Shown here: piece after piece, positions 2,462 through 32,000 of the stretch
Layout of the letters: each line of letters starts with the position of its first letter
Position numbering within the stretch: the first letter of the stretch is position 1
The notes under the pieces: model-generated
Database searches by the model: none
Told to the model about the DNA's origin: nothing
The model's input: only the letters and a program-made list of their open reading frames with translations
Assembly (NCBI GenBank): GCA_021201965.1
Contig: JAJQDY010000055.1
Coordinates: 8,563 to 40,562 of the forward strand
From: Phascolarctobacterium sp.
Lineage (GTDB): Bacteria > Bacillota > Negativicutes > Acidaminococcales > Acidaminococcaceae
Length of the DNA stretch: 32,000 bases
Direction: 5' to 3'
Made by a program: the position numbers and the translations under genes

Positions 2462-2552
2462 TGGCGGAGTGGGTGGGATTCGAACCCACGCACGGCGCAA
2501 CCCGCCTAACGATTTAGCAAACCGTCCTCTTCAGCCACTTGAGTACCACTCC
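2462..2552 (-). tRNA. tRNA-Ser (anticodon GCU), CCA encoded
   Basis: The reverse complement starts GGAGTGGTACTCAAGTGGCTGAAGAGGACGGTTTGCTAAATCGT... The anticodon stem is ACGGT/ATCGT and the loop TTGCTAA gives GCT. It has a long variable arm, T-arm GTGGG-TTCGAAT-CCCAC and a terminal CCA. Confidence 0.9.
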
Positions 2553-2604: not shown

Positions 2605-2693
2605 TGGCGGAGAGAGTGGGATTCGAACCCACGGAGGCTGTTAACCTCGACGGTTTTCAGGACCGTTGCCTTAAACCACTCGGCCACCTCTCC
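2605..2693 (-). tRNA. tRNA-Ser (anticodon UGA), CCA encoded
   Basis: The reverse complement starts GGAGAGGTGGCCGAGTGGTTTAAGGCAACGGTCCTGAAAACCGT... The anticodon stem is ACGGT/ACCGT and the loop CCTGAAA gives TGA. It has a long variable arm, T-arm GTGGGTTCGAATCCCAC and CCA. Position 33 reads C rather than the usual U. Confidence 0.85.
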
Positions 2694-12358: not shown

Positions 12359-14872
12359 TTACACCTTCCTTATGGCACCGACCACGCATTCCTTGAATTC
12401 CTCCATGCCGTCGGTGATGCGAATATCCATGTTTAATATGTAAAGCGGTATCTCCCTGTCGGAATAGATGAATTCCGTCGGGATCTTAACCGCATCCTTG
12501 GCAGTCGTTACCATGGCGACCACGTTTTCCCCGCTTGCCCGGTCGCTTATGTACTGCATCTCGACCATGCCGTAGTCATGATGGTCGGGGTAGCGTACGG
12601 CTTCCTGGATCTTGAGCCCTATGCTGACGAGTGTCTGTTCAAAGGAGAAGGGATTGCCTATGGCGGAAAATACCATGACATGCTGGCCCATTAAATCGTC
12701 AAGGGCAATGTAGTTATAGGTTATGCCCTTGTACCAGTCGGCAATCTCCATGAAGTTCTTGGGATGGTGGATGCTTTCCATGATGGGGGCGCCCATGTTG
12801 TATTCGGCTATGATGTCGCGCACCTGCACCCGGTTAAAGACGCTGCTCTGGTCCGTCTTGGTAAGGAGGAAGAGGTCCCCCCTGTCAAGGTTCGATATGG
12901 GTTCGCGGAGCGTACCGCTCGGGAGCACGCCGCCGGGGCCGAACATGTTGAGGGTGTCTATGAGCACCACGTCAAGGTCACGCTCCAGCTGCCAGTGCTG
13001 GTAGCCGTCGTCCATGATTATTACTTCGGCGTTGAACTTTTCCACGGCGTATTTTCCCGTCACGGCACGGCTCTTGCCTATTATTACGGGAACGCCGGCA
13101 AGCATCTTCGCCATGAGGTACGCCTCATCGCCTGCCTCATAGGCAGTCATGTAAATCTTGGTGCCGTCGGAAACGACGCCCAGCTCCTTATCCCAGTGTG
13201 AACGGTAGCCACGGTTTAAAATTACGACCCTGTACCCGAGGCTCCTGACAAGATCCGCTACCTTCTGCGCCGTAGGGGTCTTGCCCGTACCGCCTACGGT
13301 AATGTTCCCTATGGAAATAACGCAGCAGGGCAGGCTCTCGGGCCTTAAGAAGCCCATCTTGTACATGTAGAGGTTGCAGGATACGCCGAATTCGTAAAGG
13401 TATGAGAGCATGACGAGGAAGGATACCAGGATCCAGCCCGTAAAGGAGGTCCTCGGCCCGTTCACGATTTCAAATATATACTGGATGATGGCATCGCCGT
13501 GGCGCAGGCGCTCGCCGCCTTTGTCGGTGATGTTCCTCGTGTTGACAGGGTATGCCGGGTATTTCTTGGAAGGGAGTGCCGTAAGTTCAAGAAGCTCCTT
13601 GAGGTAAGCGATACTCTTTACGTCGGCGCCCCTGTTCTCCCTTATTACCTGCATGGATGCCTCGCCCATCTTCTCCCTGCGTGCGTCGTCTTCTATAATG
13701 TCCAAAAGCTCCCCTTCAAGTTCGCTTTCCGTGTGGATCATTTTGCATGCCCCGACTTTGCTGAGGAGCGCATAGGAATCCTTAAAGTTCTGCATGTTGG
13801 GGCCGACGATTATGGGCTTTGCATGGGCCGCCGGCTCAAGGACATTGTGCCCGCCGTGCTTTATGAGGGACCCGCCCACATAGACCACGTCACCCACTGC
13901 GTAGATACGCCCGAGCTCGCCTATGGTATCTATGAGGAGCACGGGATAGGGTTTCCTTTTCCCTTCGAGCATTTTCGACCTGTAGCCTGCCTCATAGCCG
14001 TAAGCCGCCGCAAGGCGCGCGATTTCATCGGATCGCGTCGTTTTACGGGGTGCTATGACGAACCTTGCCTCGGGGTATTTTCCCCTTATGTCGCGGAAGG
14101 CGTCAAGAAGCGCCTTTTCTTCCGTGGGATGTGTGGAGCCCGCGACAATCACCGGATATGCGTCGCCAATTCCCAGTTCCTCCCTGTATTTTTTGAGGTC
14201 TTCCGCCGTAACTTCCGCATAAGTCTGGTCAAATTTAGTGTTGCCGGTAATGAAAATCTTCCTCTTATCGGCGCCGAGGCGCACGATGTAGTCCGCGTCG
14301 ATGCTGGACTGCATGCAGAAACGGCTCACGGTGGAGAGCATGTCATCCCAGATGCTGAAGAGGTAGCGGTAGTTCTTCACGCTGCTTTCGGAGATACGCC
14401 CGTTTACCATCATAACGGGGATGTGCAGCTCCCTTATTGCCCGGAGGAAATTCGGCCACAGCTCCGTCTCAACCGGCATGAAGATGCCGGGCCTTATCCT
14501 TCTTACTATTGATTCGGAAACGAAAGGCAGATCTATCGGGAAGAAGATAATGTCATCCGCCTCGGGGATAATCTGCTTGGCCATGTTATAGCCGCTTACG
14601 GTAAATGCGGATACAAGCACCGGGCGGTCAGGCATTTCCTTCCTTATCTGTTTTACCAAGGGGCCCGTTGCGACAATTTCCCCGACGGACGCACCGTGGA
14701 TCCAGATGCAGTCCCTACCGGCCACGTTCGCTATTTCGTCATCACAGATCCAGCCCATGCTCTGGCGGAAACGGGGCCCGAAGCCCTTTTCCGTTGCCAG
14801 GCGGTACAGGTAGTAGGGAATTACGAGCACAGTGAATACTATTACGACAAGAAAATTATACATAAGATACAT
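12359..14872 (-). CDS. waaA/lpxK: fusion protein: Kdo transferase WaaA (N-terminal, about aa 1-430) + tetraacyldisaccharide 4'-kinase LpxK (C-terminal, about aa 460-837)
   Basis: The N-terminal half has IWIHGASVGE, a GT-B pattern and ...GGSL..HGGHN.LEPAA... (WaaA). The C-terminal half has a hydrophobic helix FTGWILVSFLVMLSYLYEF, then ISIGNITVGGTGKTP (LpxK P-loop), ...LNRGY... and ...MDDGYQH.... It is one uninterrupted 837-codon ORF. Confidence 0.88.
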   Translation of the reverse strand: MYLMYNFLVVIVFTVLVIPYYLYRLATEKGFGPRFRQSMGWICDDEIANVAGRDCIWIHGASVGEIVATGPLVKQIRKEMPDRPVLVSAFTVSGYNMAKQIIPEADDIIFFPIDLPFVSESIVRRIRPGIFMPVETELWPNFLRAIRELHIPVMMVNGRISESSVKNYRYLFSIWDDMLSTVSRFCMQSSIDADYIVRLGADKRKIFITGNTKFDQTYAEVTAEDLKKYREELGIGDAYPVIVAGSTHPTEEKALLDAFRDIRGKYPEARFVIAPRKTTRSDEIARLAAAYGYEAGYRSKMLEGKRKPYPVLLIDTIGELGRIYAVGDVVYVGGSLIKHGGHNVLEPAAHAKPIIVGPNMQNFKDSYALLSKVGACKMIHTESELEGELLDIIEDDARREKMGEASMQVIRENRGADVKSIAYLKELLELTALPSKKYPAYPVNTRNITDKGGERLRHGDAIIQYIFEIVNGPRTSFTGWILVSFLVMLSYLYEFGVSCNLYMYKMGFLRPESLPCCVISIGNITVGGTGKTPTAQKVADLVRSLGYRVVILNRGYRSHWDKELGVVSDGTKIYMTAYEAGDEAYLMAKMLAGVPVIIGKSRAVTGKYAVEKFNAEVIIMDDGYQHWQLERDLDVVLIDTLNMFGPGGVLPSGTLREPISNLDRGDLFLLTKTDQSSVFNRVQVRDIIAEYNMGAPIMESIHHPKNFMEIADWYKGITYNYIALDDLMGQHVMVFSAIGNPFSFEQTLVSIGLKIQEAVRYPDHHDYGMVEMQYISDRASGENVVAMVTTAKDAVKIPTEFIYSDREIPLYILNMDIRITDGMEEFKECVVGAIRKV

Positions 14873-19618: not shown

Positions 19619-20896
19619 TTATGCTTCCATGGGGTCAATAAGGGCAAAGAAGCAGTCGCATTCGCTGACTATATTGCCGTCCACTTTGCCTTCACAGTGG
19701 ATGACGCCCATATTCCCCTTAATTTTAACAACTTCCGCCGTGGTAACCACCTGGTCGCCGGGCACTACTTTCTTGCGAAAACGGACATTGTCGATTTTAC
19801 CGAATACGGCAAGCTTGCCCCTGTTTTCCTTCGGATACAGCATGGCAACGCCGCCGACCTGGGCCATGGCCTCAATTAAAAGCACGCCCGGGAAAATCGG
19901 CTCGTTGGGGAAATGCCCCAAGAACTGTATTTCGTTTACCGTGATGTTCTTGATCCCCACCGCACGCTGCATAGGTTCCAGCTCCAGGATTTTATCCACG
20001 AGGAGCATCGGGAACCGGTGCGGCAGTATTTTTTTAATTTCGTTGATGTCAAGGACTGCCATGTGTTGTTCCCCCTTTAATCTATAGGCAGCTATTTTCT
20101 TTGTAAGCCTTGAATTTAATGCATGTCCCGTCTGGAATGCTATGATGTGCCCCTTTATGGGCCCCAAAAGATACATATCCCCGATTACGTCGAGTATTTT
20201 GTGCCGTATGAGCTCGTCATGGAACCTGAGGTCCGAAAGCACCTTGTCCTTGGCGAAGACCACCGTATTTTCCAGGGTTCCGCCGAGTCCCATGCCCATT
20301 TTCTTCAGCAACTCAATTTCCTCAAGGAAGGCCACCGTCCTTGCCGGGGCTATTTCCTTTCCGAACGAGCCTTCCGTGAGCTCAATGTCAAAATACTGCG
20401 TCCCGAGCAGGGGATGCTTGTTCACCGAAGTGAAAGTTATCTTAAAACCGTTATAGGGCTCAATCATTATTGAGCGGTCACCCTCGTGGATTGCAAAGGT
20501 CTTATCCACGACATAGGGTTCGCGTTTTGCATCCTGCTCCGAAAGCCCCGCCTCTTCAATGAGGTCGAAAAACACCTTCGCGCTGCCATCCGCAACGGGA
20601 GGTTCCGAAGATGACATTTTCACGCGAACGTTGTCCACTCCCGCCATGGAAAAGGCACTCATGAGATGCTCTATGGTTGAGATCTCGGCACCGTTTTCGC
20701 TGATGGTCGTGGCCTTTACTGTAGCCGAGATATTTTCCGCCCTGGCGTGGATTTCAGGGCATCCAGACAGGTCCGTGCGGACGAAAATAACGCCCGTGTT
20801 TTCCGGTGCCGGCTTTAAGCAAAGGATAACTTCTTTCCCCGAGTGGAGCCCGACGCCCGAATATTTTACTTCTTTTGCAAGTGTTCGCTGCTTCAC
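19619..20896 (-). CDS. lpxC/fabZ: bifunctional UDP-3-O-acyl-GlcNAc deacetylase / 3-hydroxyacyl-ACP dehydratase (LpxC-FabZ fusion)
   Basis: KQRTLAKEVKYSGVGLHSGKEV matches the LpxC N-terminus (E. coli MIKQRTL...). The C-terminal 150 aa has ILPHRFPMLLVDKI and ...GHFP..PI.PGVL.IEA.AQ (FabZ). The start is ambiguous. GTG 20896 fits homology; the track start ATG 20947 would overlap the upstream gene by 41 nt. Confidence 0.88.
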   Translation of the reverse strand: MKQRTLAKEVKYSGVGLHSGKEVILCLKPAPENTGVIFVRTDLSGCPEIHARAENISATVKATTISENGAEISTIEHLMSAFSMAGVDNVRVKMSSSEPPVADGSAKVFFDLIEEAGLSEQDAKREPYVVDKTFAIHEGDRSIMIEPYNGFKITFTSVNKHPLLGTQYFDIELTEGSFGKEIAPARTVAFLEEIELLKKMGMGLGGTLENTVVFAKDKVLSDLRFHDELIRHKILDVIGDMYLLGPIKGHIIAFQTGHALNSRLTKKIAAYRLKGEQHMAVLDINEIKKILPHRFPMLLVDKILELEPMQRAVGIKNITVNEIQFLGHFPNEPIFPGVLLIEAMAQVGGVAMLYPKENRGKLAVFGKIDNVRFRKKVVPGDQVVTTAEVVKIKGNMGVIHCEGKVDGNIVSECDCFFALIDPMEA

Positions 20897-20906
20897 GTTT
20901 CCCACA

Positions 20907-21791
20907 TTATTTCTTAAACCGCTTGCGGCCGTCCTTCCAGCGGTCATGTACCCAGAACCACATTTCAGGATGCAGGATTATTTCTTCTTCCAGGATCCTT
21001 ACCATCTGTTCCGTGGCCCTGTAATAATCATTTTCCTTGTCTTCAGTCTTCTCCGTATAAATAGGAGGATAGATCTTGGCACTGCATGTGCCGTCATCGT
21101 TATTGTGCAGGAAGATGGGAAGAATGGGCGAACCGTGCAGCCGCGAGAGGGCCGCGCTGCCAATCGGGATAATGGACGGTTTGCCGAAAATATTTATTTT
21201 CACTCCCACATCATTTGTATCCTGGTCAAAGAGCACGCCTATGAGTTTTTTCTTCCTGAGCATCCGGCTTATAGCAAGGAGATCGACCTCGCCGCGGTTA
21301 TATGCGACTTCCTGCCCCACAATCTGGCGGTACTCGTTGATGAGTTTATCCATGTATTTATTGTTCTGTTTCCTGACTATGGAAAGCATGGGATAACCGT
21401 GCAGCGCGACTGTCCCGCCGAGGAGTTCCCAGTTTCCGTAATGCCCGGTCGCCATGATGACGCCACGGCCTGCCCTGTAGCATACATCCAGGTATTCCAT
21501 TCCTTCGATGCTCACGAGGTTTCTTATATTATCCCTTGTCAGGGTGGGAAACCTTAAGACTTCAACCACCATGCGTCCGAAGCGCCTAAGGCTGAGATCC
21601 GCTATATGGTACGCCCTGTGTTCGTCAACGCCGAGGCACTCCATGATGTTTGCCTTGGCCATCTTCATGCGCCATTCGGGCACCACGGCCACGGCGACGC
21701 CACCGAAGAATGACGCCACAAGGTTCCTTATGTATTTCGGTGCTATGCAGAGGAATGAACTGCACAGTTTGATAAGATGATAGGCCAGCAT
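20907..21791 (-). CDS. lipid A late acyltransferase, LpxL/LpxM family (second copy)
   Basis: The H(x)4E box is TGHYGNWEL. It also has ...VLFDQD... and is 294 aa. It sits between lpxD and lpxC. Confidence 0.8.
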   Translation of the reverse strand: MLAYHLIKLCSSFLCIAPKYIRNLVASFFGGVAVAVVPEWRMKMAKANIMECLGVDEHRAYHIADLSLRRFGRMVVEVLRFPTLTRDNIRNLVSIEGMEYLDVCYRAGRGVIMATGHYGNWELLGGTVALHGYPMLSIVRKQNNKYMDKLINEYRQIVGQEVAYNRGEVDLLAISRMLRKKKLIGVLFDQDTNDVGVKINIFGKPSIIPIGSAALSRLHGSPILPIFLHNNDDGTCSAKIYPPIYTEKTEDKENDYYRATEQMVRILEEEIILHPEMWFWVHDRWKDGRKRFKK

Positions 21792-22853: not shown

Positions 22854-23261
22854 TTATTTCATTTTGTCAATGAGGTCCTGCGTAACGTCTTTTCCTCCGT
22901 GGGGAACGGCTTCCTTAATTAAAATGGCACCCAGGTCCTTTTCCTTGGCAACCTGAGCCAGGCCGGTTTCAAGGCTGACTTTCAGCTTGTTCTGGGATTC
23001 GCTCTGAATTAAATTGGCTTTGGCGCTGTACTCTTCAAAGACTTTCTTCTGTTCTTCCTCGTCTTTGCCTTCCATAGCACTCCGCATTTCTGCTTCCAGA
23101 TCCTGCAGTTTCTTCGTGACTTCCTCCCTGGTAGTTTTTACCACGGCAGCGCTTTCCTCCACTTGGCGCATATCAACTATTCCGAAATCGGCATTGCGCC
23201 CGCTGCAGCCTGAGCTCATTAATGCTATGGCAACCATTAATTCTGCGGCAATTTTTCTCAT
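22854..23261 (-). CDS. skp: Skp/OmpH-family periplasmic chaperone, possible lipoprotein
   Basis: I prefer the start MRKIAAELMVAIALMSSGCSG (GAGG 9 nt upstream, overlapping the upstream stop); the track start is 23288. It has a coiled-coil core and ends KDLGAILIKEAV..GGKDVTQDLIDKM, typical of OmpH. The Cys follows a signal-like helix. Confidence 0.75.
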   Translation of the reverse strand: MRKIAAELMVAIALMSSGCSGRNADFGIVDMRQVEESAAVVKTTREEVTKKLQDLEAEMRSAMEGKDEEEQKKVFEEYSAKANLIQSESQNKLKVSLETGLAQVAKEKDLGAILIKEAVPHGGKDVTQDLIDKMK

Positions 23262-23271
23262 TTTTAAAACC

Positions 23272-24198
23272 TCACTTATTTTCTTCATTATTTTCTTTCC
23301 GCATTATGGCGATGACATCGTCTGTTATGTCATCAGCCTTGACGTTTACTTTATATTCCTTAAAGACCACCGTACACCTGTTGTCTTTGGCAACCTTTTC
23401 CACGGCGGACGCAATGTCCACTGTCATTTTATCAAGAATCTGCCTGTTCCGCTCTTCCTGCCGTGCTATTTCCCTGTCCATGATGTTCAGGGCTTCCTTT
23501 ATGGCTTTCGGGGCATCGTTCATCATTTTATTATATTTGCCTTCCGAAACGCCGAGCTTCTCCATTATATCCTGGTTCAGCCCGTCCGCCACTTCACGCA
23601 GGTTTGCATGCGCCTCGTCTATCCTCGGCTGCATGCGCTCCGCAATAATGCCCATTTTTACGTTTTCTATTTCCTGCATCCTCTGGTCGCGCTCGCCCTT
23701 TACCGACTGCAGTTCCCTCTCCGCATTCCTTTTCTCTTCGGGCGTAAGTTTCAGGGACTGCATCTGCATGCGGATATTGAACATCCTGAGCTGGTACTCG
23801 TTTTCCAGTTCCTTTTTATGTTCCCCGACAACCTCTTCCGCATCAGCCTCAGTTTCGTGATAGTACTGCTCCAGCCTTTCGTTTTCAATAACCTGCTGTT
23901 CAGCCATGCGGGTATTGAAATCGGCCTCCAGGTAACTCCTCTCACTCATATCCCTCAGCTCATACAGCTTCATGAGGTTCCTCATCTGGGTGCGAGCCAC
24001 GTTTTCCTGATCCTGGCGTTTTTCCACCAGACTCTTATAAACAGCCTCGCCATGGACCAGACGCTTATGCTGTGGATGCCCCGCAACGACCTTCTCGAAG
24101 TCAATGACCGCTATCTTGTCACTGCGGAAATTCAGGAATAAGCAGCCAAAGACCACAAATATACCTACAATGATTTTCCAAAGCAGCGATCTGTTCAT
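23272..24198 (-). CDS. Skp/OmpH-family protein with doubled-length coiled-coil arm (308 aa)
   Basis: It has an N-terminal anchor/signal, an OmpH start KIAVIDFEKVVAGHPQ and an OmpH end KDNRCTVVFKEYKVNVKADDITDDVIAIM. These are separated by about 230 aa of charged helical sequence. Confidence 0.7.
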   Translation of the reverse strand: MNRSLLWKIIVGIFVVFGCLFLNFRSDKIAVIDFEKVVAGHPQHKRLVHGEAVYKSLVEKRQDQENVARTQMRNLMKLYELRDMSERSYLEADFNTRMAEQQVIENERLEQYYHETEADAEEVVGEHKKELENEYQLRMFNIRMQMQSLKLTPEEKRNAERELQSVKGERDQRMQEIENVKMGIIAERMQPRIDEAHANLREVADGLNQDIMEKLGVSEGKYNKMMNDAPKAIKEALNIMDREIARQEERNRQILDKMTVDIASAVEKVAKDNRCTVVFKEYKVNVKADDITDDVIAIMRKENNEENK

Positions 24199-24791: not shown

Positions 24792-26057
24792 CTACAAATT
24801 CCCTATAAGGCGGAGGTAGAATTCGTCCCCGCCGTAAACGGCTTCGGCACTGAGAAATTCATGGATGCGGTAGCGCACGCCGTACTCGTTCCTGTTGCTG
24901 CCGGAAAAATGCTCCGTGCGCAGGCGCCATCTGGGTCCAAGGTAATATTCAAACTTCCAGTCGTTTTCGCTCTTTGGGATCCTCCTTGCATAGGTCCAGG
25001 CGCTCTTGCCCCAGTGATATGTATAGCCGAGGCCGAATATCCAGTCCATGTCATTTAAATAGACTTCCGCCTCGCCGAATACTTCATGATCGGTCAGGAG
25101 GAACCTGCCGACATGGGCCTTGCCGGACAGGTTGTTCTTATCCCTGCCCACATCGCCGTAACCTTCAAACCAGATTTTATACTCATTGGATGTGAGAAGG
25201 ATTTCAACATCCGTGTCAGGACCGGGGGTAATGCTGACCTTAGGTTTTAAGCGGTAAAGCTTACCGTCCGCCTCGTCTTCCAGCTGCGCCCTGAGGGACC
25301 CCGTGATTTCATCCCTGTTGCGTTTCACGTGTTCAACGGGAAGCCCGCGCAGCTTATCACATTCCACGCGGTATTTGTTTTTAAGTTTCATTAAAAGGAG
25401 GTTCGGAATTGCTTCTGACCTCAGTTCGTAATTTATGGTCCTTACCAGCTGCCCCACGGGATAGATGACAACCTGTACCACGGTCCTGTCGCCTTCCTGT
25501 ACAAGATCGACCGCCGCCTTGAATTCAGGGAGGGCATTTTCCACTTCATCCCTCACGATCCTTCTTAAGACGCCTACCGCCCAGTCGCTAGCATCAACCG
25601 ATGCTCCCCTTATGGTGTAGAGCAGGTCATTCTTAAGCTGCGGCATCCGCTCTTCAAGAAGCTCTGCTGCCGCAGGCTCCACGCCGGAAAACTGTATGTC
25701 AAGGTCCACGTTTTCTATGGTATTATTCCAGGGGTATATTTCAAGGGTTATATAAGTCGTCGGCCCGAGGGTCATATAGGTATTGCTTATTTCGTAGCCG
25801 GTAAGCACCCTGTCGCCGATTTCCGTAAGGAGCCTTGTATAGTCCACTTCAGAAAGGCGCACTATTTCCGTGTCCTTGTCCGCAAGGATCTGCTTGGCAA
25901 CCACCTGCATGCTGCTGCCCATTTTCCTGAGCAGCGGCCCGCTGGTGTCGCCCCTTATGTCAACGACATTCACGCTCACGCTGTCTATCGGCATAGAAAA
26001 AGCTTGCTGCAGCGGCATAAGTGCCAGTGCAGCAATGGTAAGAATCTTAAAATTCAT
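24792..26057 (-). CDS. exported protein of unknown function: three repeated alpha/beta-looking modules plus an aromatic-rich beta C-terminal domain (putative OM protein)
   Basis: Signal peptide is MNFKILTIAALALMPLQQAFS. Internal module ends recur: TYITLEIYP (about aa 109) and TVVQVVIYP (about aa 200). About 26 of the last 133 residues are W/Y/F, in an alternating pattern. SD GGAGAG lies in the 17 nt after the bamA stop. Confidence 0.6.
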   Translation of the reverse strand: MNFKILTIAALALMPLQQAFSMPIDSVSVNVVDIRGDTSGPLLRKMGSSMQVVAKQILADKDTEIVRLSEVDYTRLLTEIGDRVLTGYEISNTYMTLGPTTYITLEIYPWNNTIENVDLDIQFSGVEPAAAELLEERMPQLKNDLLYTIRGASVDASDWAVGVLRRIVRDEVENALPEFKAAVDLVQEGDRTVVQVVIYPVGQLVRTINYELRSEAIPNLLLMKLKNKYRVECDKLRGLPVEHVKRNRDEITGSLRAQLEDEADGKLYRLKPKVSITPGPDTDVEILLTSNEYKIWFEGYGDVGRDKNNLSGKAHVGRFLLTDHEVFGEAEVYLNDMDWIFGLGYTYHWGKSAWTYARRIPKSENDWKFEYYLGPRWRLRTEHFSGSNRNEYGVRYRIHEFLSAEAVYGGDEFYLRLIGNL

Positions 26058-28338: not shown

Positions 28339-28776
28339 TTATTTACTGAGCTCCGTCTTGGCAGACCGTACCAGCCGGCGCATGTCGGCATTTGATATCA
28401 CTGGTCTTGCGACGGAGCGCTCGGCAGGCACTTCTCCGGAATAAACTTCTTTCCCGCTTGCTTCCTTTGCGCGGGCTTGAGCCTTCACTACGCTCTGGGT
28501 CACATCTGCCTGCATGGCATGCTGTGCCGAAACGCCGTGGTAATACCAGCCGCCGAACCCTGCCAGGACTAAAAGTATGGCCGTGCAGACCGCCAGCATG
28601 TGTCTGTTCCAATTCCATGGGACGTCACTTTTACGGCGCAGGTTTTTCAGCTCTGCTTCAGCAAGCATTAAATCAAGCTCGCCGCGCATGCCGTTATTAT
28701 CAAGAAAATTCTGTTCCGCATTTTCAAGACTGCTTTTTACGGTACGGATTCTCTGGGATACCTGTTTCTGTTCCAT
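28339..28776 (-). CDS. single-pass membrane protein, unknown function (anti-sigma-factor-like topology)
   Basis: It has about 58 aa of cytoplasmic helical N-terminus, the TM segment MLAVCTAILLVLAGFGGWYY, and about 65 aa outside. It lies 14 nt upstream of bamA and is the next gene after the sigma factor. No zinc-finger or other recognisable motif. Confidence 0.5.
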   Translation of the reverse strand: MEQKQVSQRIRTVKSSLENAEQNFLDNNGMRGELDLMLAEAELKNLRRKSDVPWNWNRHMLAVCTAILLVLAGFGGWYYHGVSAQHAMQADVTQSVVKAQARAKEASGKEVYSGEVPAERSVARPVISNADMRRLVRSAKTELSK

Positions 28777-29562: not shown

Positions 29563-32000
29563 TCAGAATCTGATCCTATATTCGAGCTCTACCCAGTCAT
29601 CCGGATCCGTCAAACCATAGGTTCGGGAATATGCAAGATTTATATGCCTACTAATATCGTACTGTCCAAAGATACTTCTGTCAATACCATTGAAACTTGT
29701 CGTGTAGCCGATCATAAGATGCGACGTAAAGTATTTGCTTATCAGCATGTTGTAATGGTTCTTATCATCTGTGCTAAGTTCACTGCTGCTTGCCTGCTTC
29801 ATGGTTTCGAAACCGTCACCGCTCCTTATCTGTCCAGTGTAGATGCGGAACTGGTCAATACCCCGCGACTGCTTCAGCATCATCTCAACGTCGCCTAGGA
29901 CCGCCATCTGCAGGCCCACCGCCATGAGGTTTTGCATATCTTCACCGGTTATTTCATCCCCTCCGACTGCATCGGCACGCTGCAGTGTCAGCATACAGAT
30001 AATGGTATTCTGCTCGAGTGGCGGATTACTTGTAAGCTTCATGTTTATGTCTTCAATGGGCCCTTTAATGGTCACGTAAATATAGTACCTGCTGAAGCGG
30101 GCTTCGCTTTCAATATTTACCGTCGGGAAGAAAGTCCTCTTGGTCGGCCAGGAAAGTGATGCCTCTTTCAGCTTAAAGGGCGTGCGCAAATATGTAACCG
30201 TGCCGTGGTCCACGCTCAAATCGCCGCTGATATCCGGGAAAAGGCTGCTGCCTTCTATATGCATACTTTCTACTACCAACAGGTCGTAGAAGAATTTATT
30301 GAATAAATGAATCTTAGGACCGAGCTCTATATTAAGATCCAATCCGATATTGGTTCCGCCGTCCCCCATATCAGGAACCGTAGGAACATTAAAGAGTGCG
30401 TCTTCCACCCTTACATTGCCGCTTATCTTCGGCCGGTAGCCACTTTCCGCTTCCGTAGTTTCCGTGGCACGCTTCCTGTAACCTTCAGTCGTTATGGTAA
30501 GTTTGCTGTTCAGCCTGCAGGTCAGAATGTCTGATACGAGTTCCGCATCATTTGCCACGATATGCAGCATGTAGCTTTGGTCCTCGCTGCTGCGCAGGCC
30601 GTAGGTACCATTAAAGGCAATAGTGCCCTTGCCGAGCTGCGTGGAAAGATCATCCAGACGCACCTGGTCACCGTCAAAGACAAGCTCCGTATTGATTTTA
30701 TCTACAACTGTATCAGCGTCCTTTATCTTTATGCAGCCTTCTCTTATGGTAACGGAACCGAAAGTAAAGGGTTCTTCCAAAGTCCCCGCAAGGACTATGT
30801 TGCCGGCCGTTTCGCCAATTGCCCATTCAACCTGTTTGAAAAGGGCGGGCAGTATACCGAGCTGGGCCTCACTCATGTCGACATTAATCCTCATCTGGGC
30901 ATCCGGCTTGCGGCGCTCTTCTTTGGCGCACACAAGATCAACCTGGAGGAAGCCCCTGGCCTTGACGCTATAGATATCCTTTACAATATATGCCTCGGTT
31001 AAGGTAACCAGGTCATCGGCAAGTGTGAATTTCGTGGAAAGGGCATCAATCGGTGCCCCTGCAAAAGAGCCGTTAACTATTTCGGCATCTGCGCTGCCAG
31101 CCGGGTTATCGAAAGGTCACTGCACCTTGACCGCAATATTCATTTCACCTTTTATCTCAGGCGGATCCTTTACAAAGGCCATGGTAAGCATAGGATCTGC
31201 CTTCACCGCATTAAGCCCCACATCAATAGTCCTGCCGTCAAAATCGATCTGCCCGTCTATTATGATGCTGCCTTTGTCCGTTACGCCCTTTTTCTTCAGC
31301 AGATGGAAATTGTCAAAATAGAGCACGTCCTTTACCACATTGGCGTCAAAGAGCATATCGTTATAATGCAGTCTGTGGATGCGCACGTCATCTGCGGACA
31401 GCCGTAAAACCCAGCCGCTGCCGCTCCTGTGCGAATATGGCTGCTTAAATGAAGCCACGACCCTGTTGGTTGCGCCGCCATCAGCTTCCGCATGTCATGA
31501 TATATTCGTCAGCGACTCGCCATTAGCGATTATTTTATCGCTGCTGACATCGCCGGTAAAGACCGGCCTGTTAAGCGTTACCTTTAAAGTTCCCATGGCA
31601 TTCACAAAGCCGTCTATGTCATAATTCTTGTCCGATACGGGGAGCCTGTCGAGATCAAGATCCTTGGCATCCAGTTCAAAATCAATGCTGTTGTCGTAGA
31701 TGGACATGGTACCGTTCAGCTCAGCCTGGGTGGCCAGCGCGGCAATCTTGACATTCTTTATTTCCAAGTGCGACGGATCAATGTCATAGCTTCCCTTCAC
31801 CTTATCTATGAGGTAACCTTCTATACTACCCTTGGTGAGGCATAAATCACCCTTGGCACTGAAGCTGTTCATTGTTCCCCACACATGCATGTCGCTGTCA
31901 ATATCGCCGGTAAGGTCAAGATCCTGCCCGGCCGTCTTAAGCAGCGGTTCGATGCGTACGTGGTCTGATTTTATATCCAGGTCGAACACGGGATTATCCG
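29563..32000 (-). pseudogene. tamB: tamB (translocation and assembly module subunit, DUF490 C-terminus); 5' end outside window; frame interrupted by two in-frame TGA codons
   Basis: Track ORFs 31495..31989, 31117..31458 and 29563..30933 share one frame. Hand translation of the gaps shows no other stop. The TGAs are at 31495-31497 and 31117-31119. It has repetitive beta-rich sequence with G-x-h-x-x-P and ISG motifs, and ends ...DDWVELEYRIRF. Confidence 0.8.

Follow-up and report, generated by a model that had tools for sequence, protein, structure and literature searches.

Is a tamB gene that carries two in-frame TGA codons still translated into a complete TamB protein, or has it simply been lost? 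The question is raised by a locus at the end of a 32,000-nt stretch of DNA from Phascolarctobacterium sp. (assembly GCA_021201965.1, contig JAJQDY010000055.1), which was analysed as a whole and is referred to here as the window. Conceptual translation of the minus-strand frame from position 29563 to 31998 gave 812 codons that contain two internal stops and no others, and the C-terminal end of the gene reads ...RIRF-TGA. The last 328 residues of this translation (residues 484-811) matched the Pfam family TamB (DUF490), PF04357, with an E-value of 4.1e-28, the match spanning profile positions 53-381 of 381. A first-pass annotation of this DNA had reported these coordinates, this frame, a UGA-C context for both stops and an intact C-terminus, all of which were reproduced. 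The same annotation had described tamB as broken only by the two TGA codons and had offered three options for them, namely two GGA-to-TGA hits in a very fresh pseudogene, base-call error, and tolerated or programmed read-through. The features of the locus are listed in Table 1.

Table 1. Coordinates of the tamB locus and of its lesions within the window.
Feature	Position in window	Strand	Remark
tamB pseudogene, 3' 57% (codons ~561-1430 of ancestral 1430)	29563..32000	-	exceeds window end
Longest surviving ORF, 456 aa, GTG start, DUF490/TamB C-terminal domain	29563..30933	-	annotated 'translocation/assembly module TamB'
TGA nonsense, formerly GGA (Gly913), G->T	31117..31119	-	next base C
174-nt in-frame deletion junction (58 codons, ~residues 754-811 of intact protein)	31415..31423	-	alignment to L001
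TGA nonsense, formerly GGA (Gly729 of intact protein), G->T	31495..31497	-	next base C

The gene order mlaEFD-tolC-tamB-sigma-x-bamA places the locus at its conserved position in the outer-membrane cluster, with a sigma-70 gene, a small membrane-protein gene, bamA and two skp/ompH genes downstream of tamB. The domain match and this synteny identify the locus as descended from a true TamB orthologue. The gene between sigma and bamA has been called with 175 aa and with 145 aa, which is a difference in the start codon alone. All large ORFs of the window are located on the minus strand, and nine out of 30 of them terminate in TGA, including bamA and tamB, so that TGA is an ordinary terminator here, which bears out the earlier remark that it serves as a normal stop nearby.

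Used as the query of a protein search, the conceptual translation retrieved a 456-aa protein that is 99% identical to the C-terminal ORF. The 90%-identity cluster of this protein and the cluster of a 164-aa N-terminal protein contained fragments of the same gene with lengths of 113, 456, 164/184, 79, 223/224, 235 and 280 aa. Their sources were NCBI MAGs labelled Phascolarctobacterium sp. (locus tags LUF25_ and LUD41_), JGI and Logan assemblies, and the lengths of 113, 456 and 164/184 aa occurred across these sources. The 90%-identity cluster of the 456-aa protein also included P0033, the one full-length member, with 1430 aa. The DNA of this intact allele (L001:10001-14293, GCA_965325785.1) is 96.2% identical to the window allele at the nucleotide level and carries GGA (Gly) at both TGA sites. 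Besides the window, nine further assemblies with the broken allele were compared (10 sequences in all), seven of them from different SRA runs (L002-L004, L006, L008, L010 and L011) and two being separately deposited MAGs (L005, GCA_021203645.1, and L007, GCA_965299295.1).

Both TGA codons were found in all 10 broken-lineage sequences and so was a 174-nt deletion, which is invisible without comparison to another allele. The deletion is flanked by 9-bp direct repeats, CGGCAGCGG, one copy of which remains in the window allele, and the segment lost is conserved among orthologues (columns ~780-835 of alignment A1). Since the window reaches no further than codon 561 of 1430, lesions further upstream could not be seen by the first-pass annotation. 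In assemblies reaching past the window we found a +5/+6 insertion of variable length in a poly-C run at nt ~658 (C8, C9 or C11, depending on the assembly), the loss of one nucleotide (-1) from an A7 run at nt 722 and of 21 nt flanked by CGGCGGCAGGCT repeats at nt 741, one extra nucleotide (+1) at nt 1496 and a TTA-to-TAA nonsense mutation at codon 531. The lesions from the -1 deletion at nt 722 onward were seen in L002, L005-L008 and L010, with L004 adding support for the +1 insertion and the TAA codon, and these further lesions were present in every broken-lineage assembly that extends that far upstream. For the genome of the window we infer them from near-identical assemblies, i.e. from sequence read outside the window itself; L002, which extends upstream, differs from the window at 2 positions in 2438 nt. 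L007 has an extra +2 insertion at nt 2469, upstream of the 456-aa ORF.

Mapping of the reading frames along L008 showed that frame 0 extends to nt 669, frame 1 from nt 728 to nt 1522 and frame 2 from nt 1578 onward, frame 2 being interrupted by TAA, TGA and TGA. The membrane-anchored N-terminus (first 530 codons) is out of frame with the remainder, and one continuous ORF of ~1400 aa joining the N-terminal membrane anchor to the C-terminal domain is absent in the broken lineage. In total, eight disabling lesions relative to L001 are shared. The claim that tamB is broken only by two TGA codons fails, as the 174-nt deletion lies in the window and a further stop, frameshifts and the 21-nt deletion lie beyond it. 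Phase variation of the poly-C tract as an on/off switch was also considered, but it could have no effect, because the seven other lesions are fixed.

The broken alleles form three haplotype groups. The window, L002, L004, L008 and L010 are within 0.2% of each other, L007 is about 0.5% away from this group, and L005 together with L006 differs by 1.2-1.56% from the other broken alleles, while the intact allele is at a distance of 3.8-4.2% from all of them. As the lesions are common to three haplotype groups that are up to 1.56% apart, the pseudogene is inherited and older than this diversification. Thus, the first of the three options stands in so far as both TGA codons go back to GGA, the codon of the intact allele; it does not stand as to the "very fresh" state of the pseudogene, nor as to the TGA codons being its sole lesions.

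We then turned to the genus as a whole. A profile search of species-representative genomes with alignment A1 identified 36 tamB loci, nearly all labelled Phascolarctobacterium, with 38-52% identity; the intact protein alone, used as query against the genome contigs, gave no match. In 35 of the 36 loci of other Phascolarctobacterium species tamB was uninterrupted over the matched span, complete copies comprising 1425-1433 codons, and the 36th locus (L046, on a 2.8-kb contig) had an open frame over 858 codons and a single frame change close to its 5' end. The first TGA site is occupied by Gly (GGN) in 35/35 loci and the second one in 36/36, with G913 being invariant in alignment A1, confirming that both TGA codons are located at Gly positions. 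A stop codon at either site was found in none of the 36 orthologous loci and not in the sister allele, and since no stop is conserved, nothing suggests a history of recoding at the two positions.

The pairwise dN/dS between intact and broken tamB is 0.23, a value within the range of the flanking genes (0.13-0.33), indicating that most of the divergence predates inactivation. Amino-acid differences were polarised with outgroup orthologues, and columns with at least 85% conservation in the outgroups were regarded as conserved. By this measure 48 derived replacements in tamB occurred in the broken lineage and 6 in the intact one, and at conserved columns the numbers were 23 and 2, respectively, the replacements at conserved columns including P971Q, R976C, L1030F, W1193L, G1196E, G1240R, R1287C and L1331R. 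Six neighbouring genes, pooled, had 42 derived replacements in the broken and 20 in the intact lineage (23 and 12 at conserved columns), i.e. the skew in tamB exceeds that of its neighbours (Fisher p = 0.007 for all replacements and p = 0.028 for conserved columns). Since the neighbours in the broken lineage also have an excess of derived changes, part of the asymmetry in tamB is background. The within-lineage polymorphism (N:S 35:21 in tamB and 18:19 in the flanks) has the direction expected for relaxed constraint, but is not significant (p = 0.21). Outgroup polarisation is thus the one measure that separates tamB from its neighbours, which neither pairwise dN/dS nor within-lineage polymorphism does, and the signal of a possibly relaxed constraint in tamB is modest. 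Taken together, the selection data fit a scenario in which the function would have been lost partway along the branch.

From these observations, i.e. the lesions, the fact that the assemblies have them in common, the intact sister allele and the uninterrupted orthologues, we conclude with a probability of roughly 0.93 that the locus represents the 3' portion of a tamB pseudogene, which is fixed in a single lineage of an uncultured Phascolarctobacterium species. Originally, the gene would have encoded a 1430-residue AsmA-like TamB in the order mlaEFD-tolC-tamB-sigma-bamA. It would then have been inactivated and have accumulated at least eight lesions, comprising three nonsense substitutions (TTA to TAA at codon 531 and GGA to TGA at codons 729 and 913), three frameshifting indels (+5/+6 in the poly-C run, -1 in the A run, and +1) and two deletions of 21 nt and 174 nt that probably arose by slippage between short direct repeats. 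The two TGA codons of the window would be plain G-to-T nonsense mutations at conserved glycines, and the synthesis of full-length TamB would be impossible with or without UGA read-through. It also follows that the database entries MCD7975066-70 and MCD8175833-35 would represent pieces of one single pseudogene.

Among the alternatives, the one that fares best is that partial function survives, with the 456-aa ORF or another fragment being expressed as a stand-alone DUF490 protein that acts with BamA. The 456-aa ORF, of which P0024 (MCD7975066.1) and P0027 (MCD8175833.1) are database copies, is open in all assemblies and has a significant match to the TamB domain, the overall dN/dS relative to the intact allele is low, and C-terminal truncations act as loss-of-function alleles in Veillonella parvula, so that the domain matters (PMC10665443). 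However, such a fragment would have neither a signal sequence nor a membrane anchor, as both reside in the out-of-frame N-terminal piece (P0029), and outgroup-conserved columns are replaced, among them the six from L1030F to L1331R in the list above. Moreover, the start of this putative ORF is just the first GTG that follows a stop. We therefore consider surviving partial function very unlikely.

Even less credible is a tolerated or programmed read-through of UGA, by near-cognate decoding in the leaky UGA-C context or by a suppressor tRNA, that would provide enough full-length TamB. The locus resembles a read-through gene because the window cuts the gene: within the window both stops are TGA followed by C, and its 812 codons have no other stop or frameshift. 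Beyond it there is a TAA stop, and the indels in the first 1500 nt leave the frame shifted in sum; together with the deletion of 58 conserved codons, this means that read-through of the two TGA codons could not restore TamB. Neither the sister allele nor any of the 36 orthologous loci has these stops, invariant residues are replaced downstream of them, and TGA terminates other large ORFs of the window, as described above. We found no stimulatory RNA structure or SECIS-like hairpin in the 60 nt after either TGA, these segments folding no better than shuffled sequences (z = -0.40 and -0.07). Within the window, which is one stretch of the genome, the only tRNAs are Ser-GCU and Ser-UGA, neither of which is able to read UGA. 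Hence, the UGA-C context is real, yet irrelevant, and the suggestion of read-through finds no support. Two related candidates were rejected as well: selenocysteine insertion, as the orthologues have Gly rather than Cys or Sec and no hairpin is present, and reassignment of UGA to a sense codon (codes 4 and 25), as TGA is used as terminator in the window and the orthologues have Gly, not Trp. Finally, sequencing or assembly error with GGA as the true sequence at both sites, conceivable because all compared sequences are metagenome assemblies and G-to-T changes can be an oxidative library artefact, is excluded for all practical purposes and with it the base-call option of the first-pass annotation, since exactly these TGA codons and this deletion recur in nine other, independent assemblies (seven runs and two separate MAG records) whose haplotypes differ elsewhere by up to 1.56%.

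If tamB is a pseudogene, the cell would have to tolerate the loss of TamB function. In the window bamA, two skp genes, lpxD, a lipid A acyltransferase gene, an lpxC-fabZ fusion, lpxA, lpxI and lpxB are intact, as are msbA, a waaA-lpxK fusion, kdsB, kdsA, kdsD, kdsC, a second lipid A acyltransferase gene, lptC, lptA, lptB and lptF/G. Upstream of tamB, the broken lineage has intact copies of mlaE, mlaF, mlaD and the tolC-like gene. Judging from this gene content the organism is still diderm with LPS. In the related V. parvula, the Negativicute that serves as experimental model, a tamB deletion mutant is viable and not hypersensitive to SDS/EDTA, but hypervesiculates (Grasekamp et al. 2023, PMC10665443). 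Two loss-of-function alleles of tamB, one with a transposon inserted at K925 and one with a Q1329* stop that arose spontaneously, suppress the phenotypes of mla deletions, such alleles arise readily and are viable, the mlaD tamB double deletion mutant is viable, and a second AsmA-like protein is present (PMC10665443). We infer that TamB function is lost and, because the outer-membrane and LPS machinery is otherwise intact and TamB is dispensable in V. parvula, that the cell tolerates this loss; in the light of the V. parvula findings it is plausible rather than paradoxical that a relative should have lost tamB naturally. A wild gut Negativicute lineage would thus have lived without TamB through at least 1.5% sequence divergence, retaining BamA, Skp, Mla, Lpt and the entire lipid A/Kdo pathway. 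Such a lineage would support what was found in the laboratory, namely that diderm Firmicutes can do without TamB and must have another anterograde route for phospholipids.

We also asked whether the loss might be adaptive rather than neutral and coupled to an altered Mla function. In mlaD, 15 derived replacements occurred in the broken and 7 in the intact lineage, with 8 and 2 at conserved columns, and mlaE and mlaF lean toward the broken lineage likewise, the ORFs of mlaE, mlaF and mlaD all being open. An adaptive loss nevertheless appears improbable to us. If it did occur, it would be the natural counterpart of the V. parvula case, where loss of tamB suppresses defects of retrograde Mla lipid transport, and the flow of phospholipids at the outer membrane might have been rebalanced by weakening both opposing pathways, with reliance on a second AsmA-like protein.

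The locus can be compared with three kinds of known systems. With recoding systems (UGA as Sec, UGA as Gly in code 25, UGA as Trp in code 4, and leaky UGA-C) it shares in-frame UGA codons at Gly positions that are followed by C, but here the stops are not conserved, a recoding signal is lacking, UGA terminates neighbouring genes, and tamB has further lesions besides. The comparison with the sister allele points to plain decay and removes a tempting candidate for stop-codon recoding. Ordinary bacterial pseudogenes, in contrast, match it in having nonsense mutations, homopolymer frameshifts, repeat-mediated deletions, an intact orthologue in a sister strain and an excess of replacements at conserved sites; what is unusual is the identity of the gene alone, which encodes a supposedly central outer-membrane lipid transporter of a diderm Firmicute. 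In a limited literature search we found no earlier case of a gut Negativicute in which a natural tamB knockout is fixed in a lineage, and although the phenomenon as such is commonplace, this instance is of some slight use to the field. The closest parallel is TamB of V. parvula, which belongs to the same family (PF04357) and is likewise encoded downstream of mlaEFD and tolC and upstream of a sigma factor gene and bamA. Whereas the laboratory tamB mutants of V. parvula were selected in an mla deletion background, the mla genes are intact here, and the loss is natural, involves multiple lesions and is fixed in a wild lineage.

The four genes mlaE, mlaF, mlaD and tolC-like are all intact in the broken lineage, i.e. 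in the assemblies that share both tamB stops and the 174-nt deletion. Derived amino-acid changes, polarised with outgroup orthologues and given as broken:intact lineage, amount to 3:1 in mlaE, 5:1 in mlaF, 5:0 in OEP and 5:0 in the sigma gene, and to 15:7 in mlaD, where conserved columns account for 8:2. Unlike in the mla genes, OEP and sigma, the changes in bamA are evenly distributed (9:11). The excess in the broken-lineage neighbours may stem from an overall difference in rate or be connected with Mla.

Within the conserved outer-membrane cluster, the 421-, 144- and 145-aa ORFs gave no match when the window ORFs were compared with Pfam, and the 421-aa and 145-aa ORFs were found again in all sister assemblies. 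The LPS cluster of the window carries two gene fusions, LpxC-FabZ and WaaA-LpxK, and the window also holds a tRNA-Ser pair.

Features of the window and of the compared loci (L001, intact-lineage sister genome GCA_965325785.1; L002, L008 and L048, broken-lineage loci)
Feature	Position	Strand	Remark
tRNA-Ser pair, adjoining	window 2462-2552 and 2605-2693	-	anticodons GCU and UGA
WaaA-LpxK fusion	window 12359-14872	-	Kdo transferase (WaaA) and LpxK in single 837-aa ORF
LpxC-FabZ fusion	window 19619-20947	-	both domains in single 442-aa ORF
144-aa ORF	window 22854-23288	-	inside conserved outer-membrane cluster
421-aa ORF	window 24792-26057	-	inside conserved outer-membrane cluster
145-aa ORF	window 28339-28776	-	inside conserved outer-membrane cluster
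Shine-Dalgarno site	window ~28787	-	upstream of ORF 28339-28776, gene between sigma and bamA
Poly-C tract, dead tamB	L002:3063-3075 / L008, tamB ref nt ~658		upstream of window end
mlaE, mlaF, mlaD, tolC-like	L048:182-4816 vs L001:5218-9852		broken vs intact lineage

Phascolarctobacterium-type tamB loci also occur in records with foreign titles (L013, L020, L030, L041, L042 and L047, from our profile scan), namely Ruminococcus intestinalis, Escherichia coli, Segatella copri, Bacteroidaceae, Duodenibacillus and Bacteroides. The apparent explanation is mislabelling or chimerism of bins from a single project. The poly-C tract of tamB, C5 in the intact allele, reads C8, C9 or C11 depending on the assembly, and three contigs stop or drop out of the alignment there, reflecting either genuine hypervariability or assembly difficulty.

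Across all broken-lineage loci, many of the lineage-specific changes in the tamB region are G->T or C->T: five GGN->GTN polymorphisms, GGA->TGA at both stop sites and two cases of CGG->CTG. The 145-aa membrane-protein gene shows one more G->T change, in its Shine-Dalgarno sequence, which is AGTAGG in the window and AGGAGG in the intact-lineage genome. The changes compared in the tamB region hint at a mutation spectrum resembling oxidative damage.
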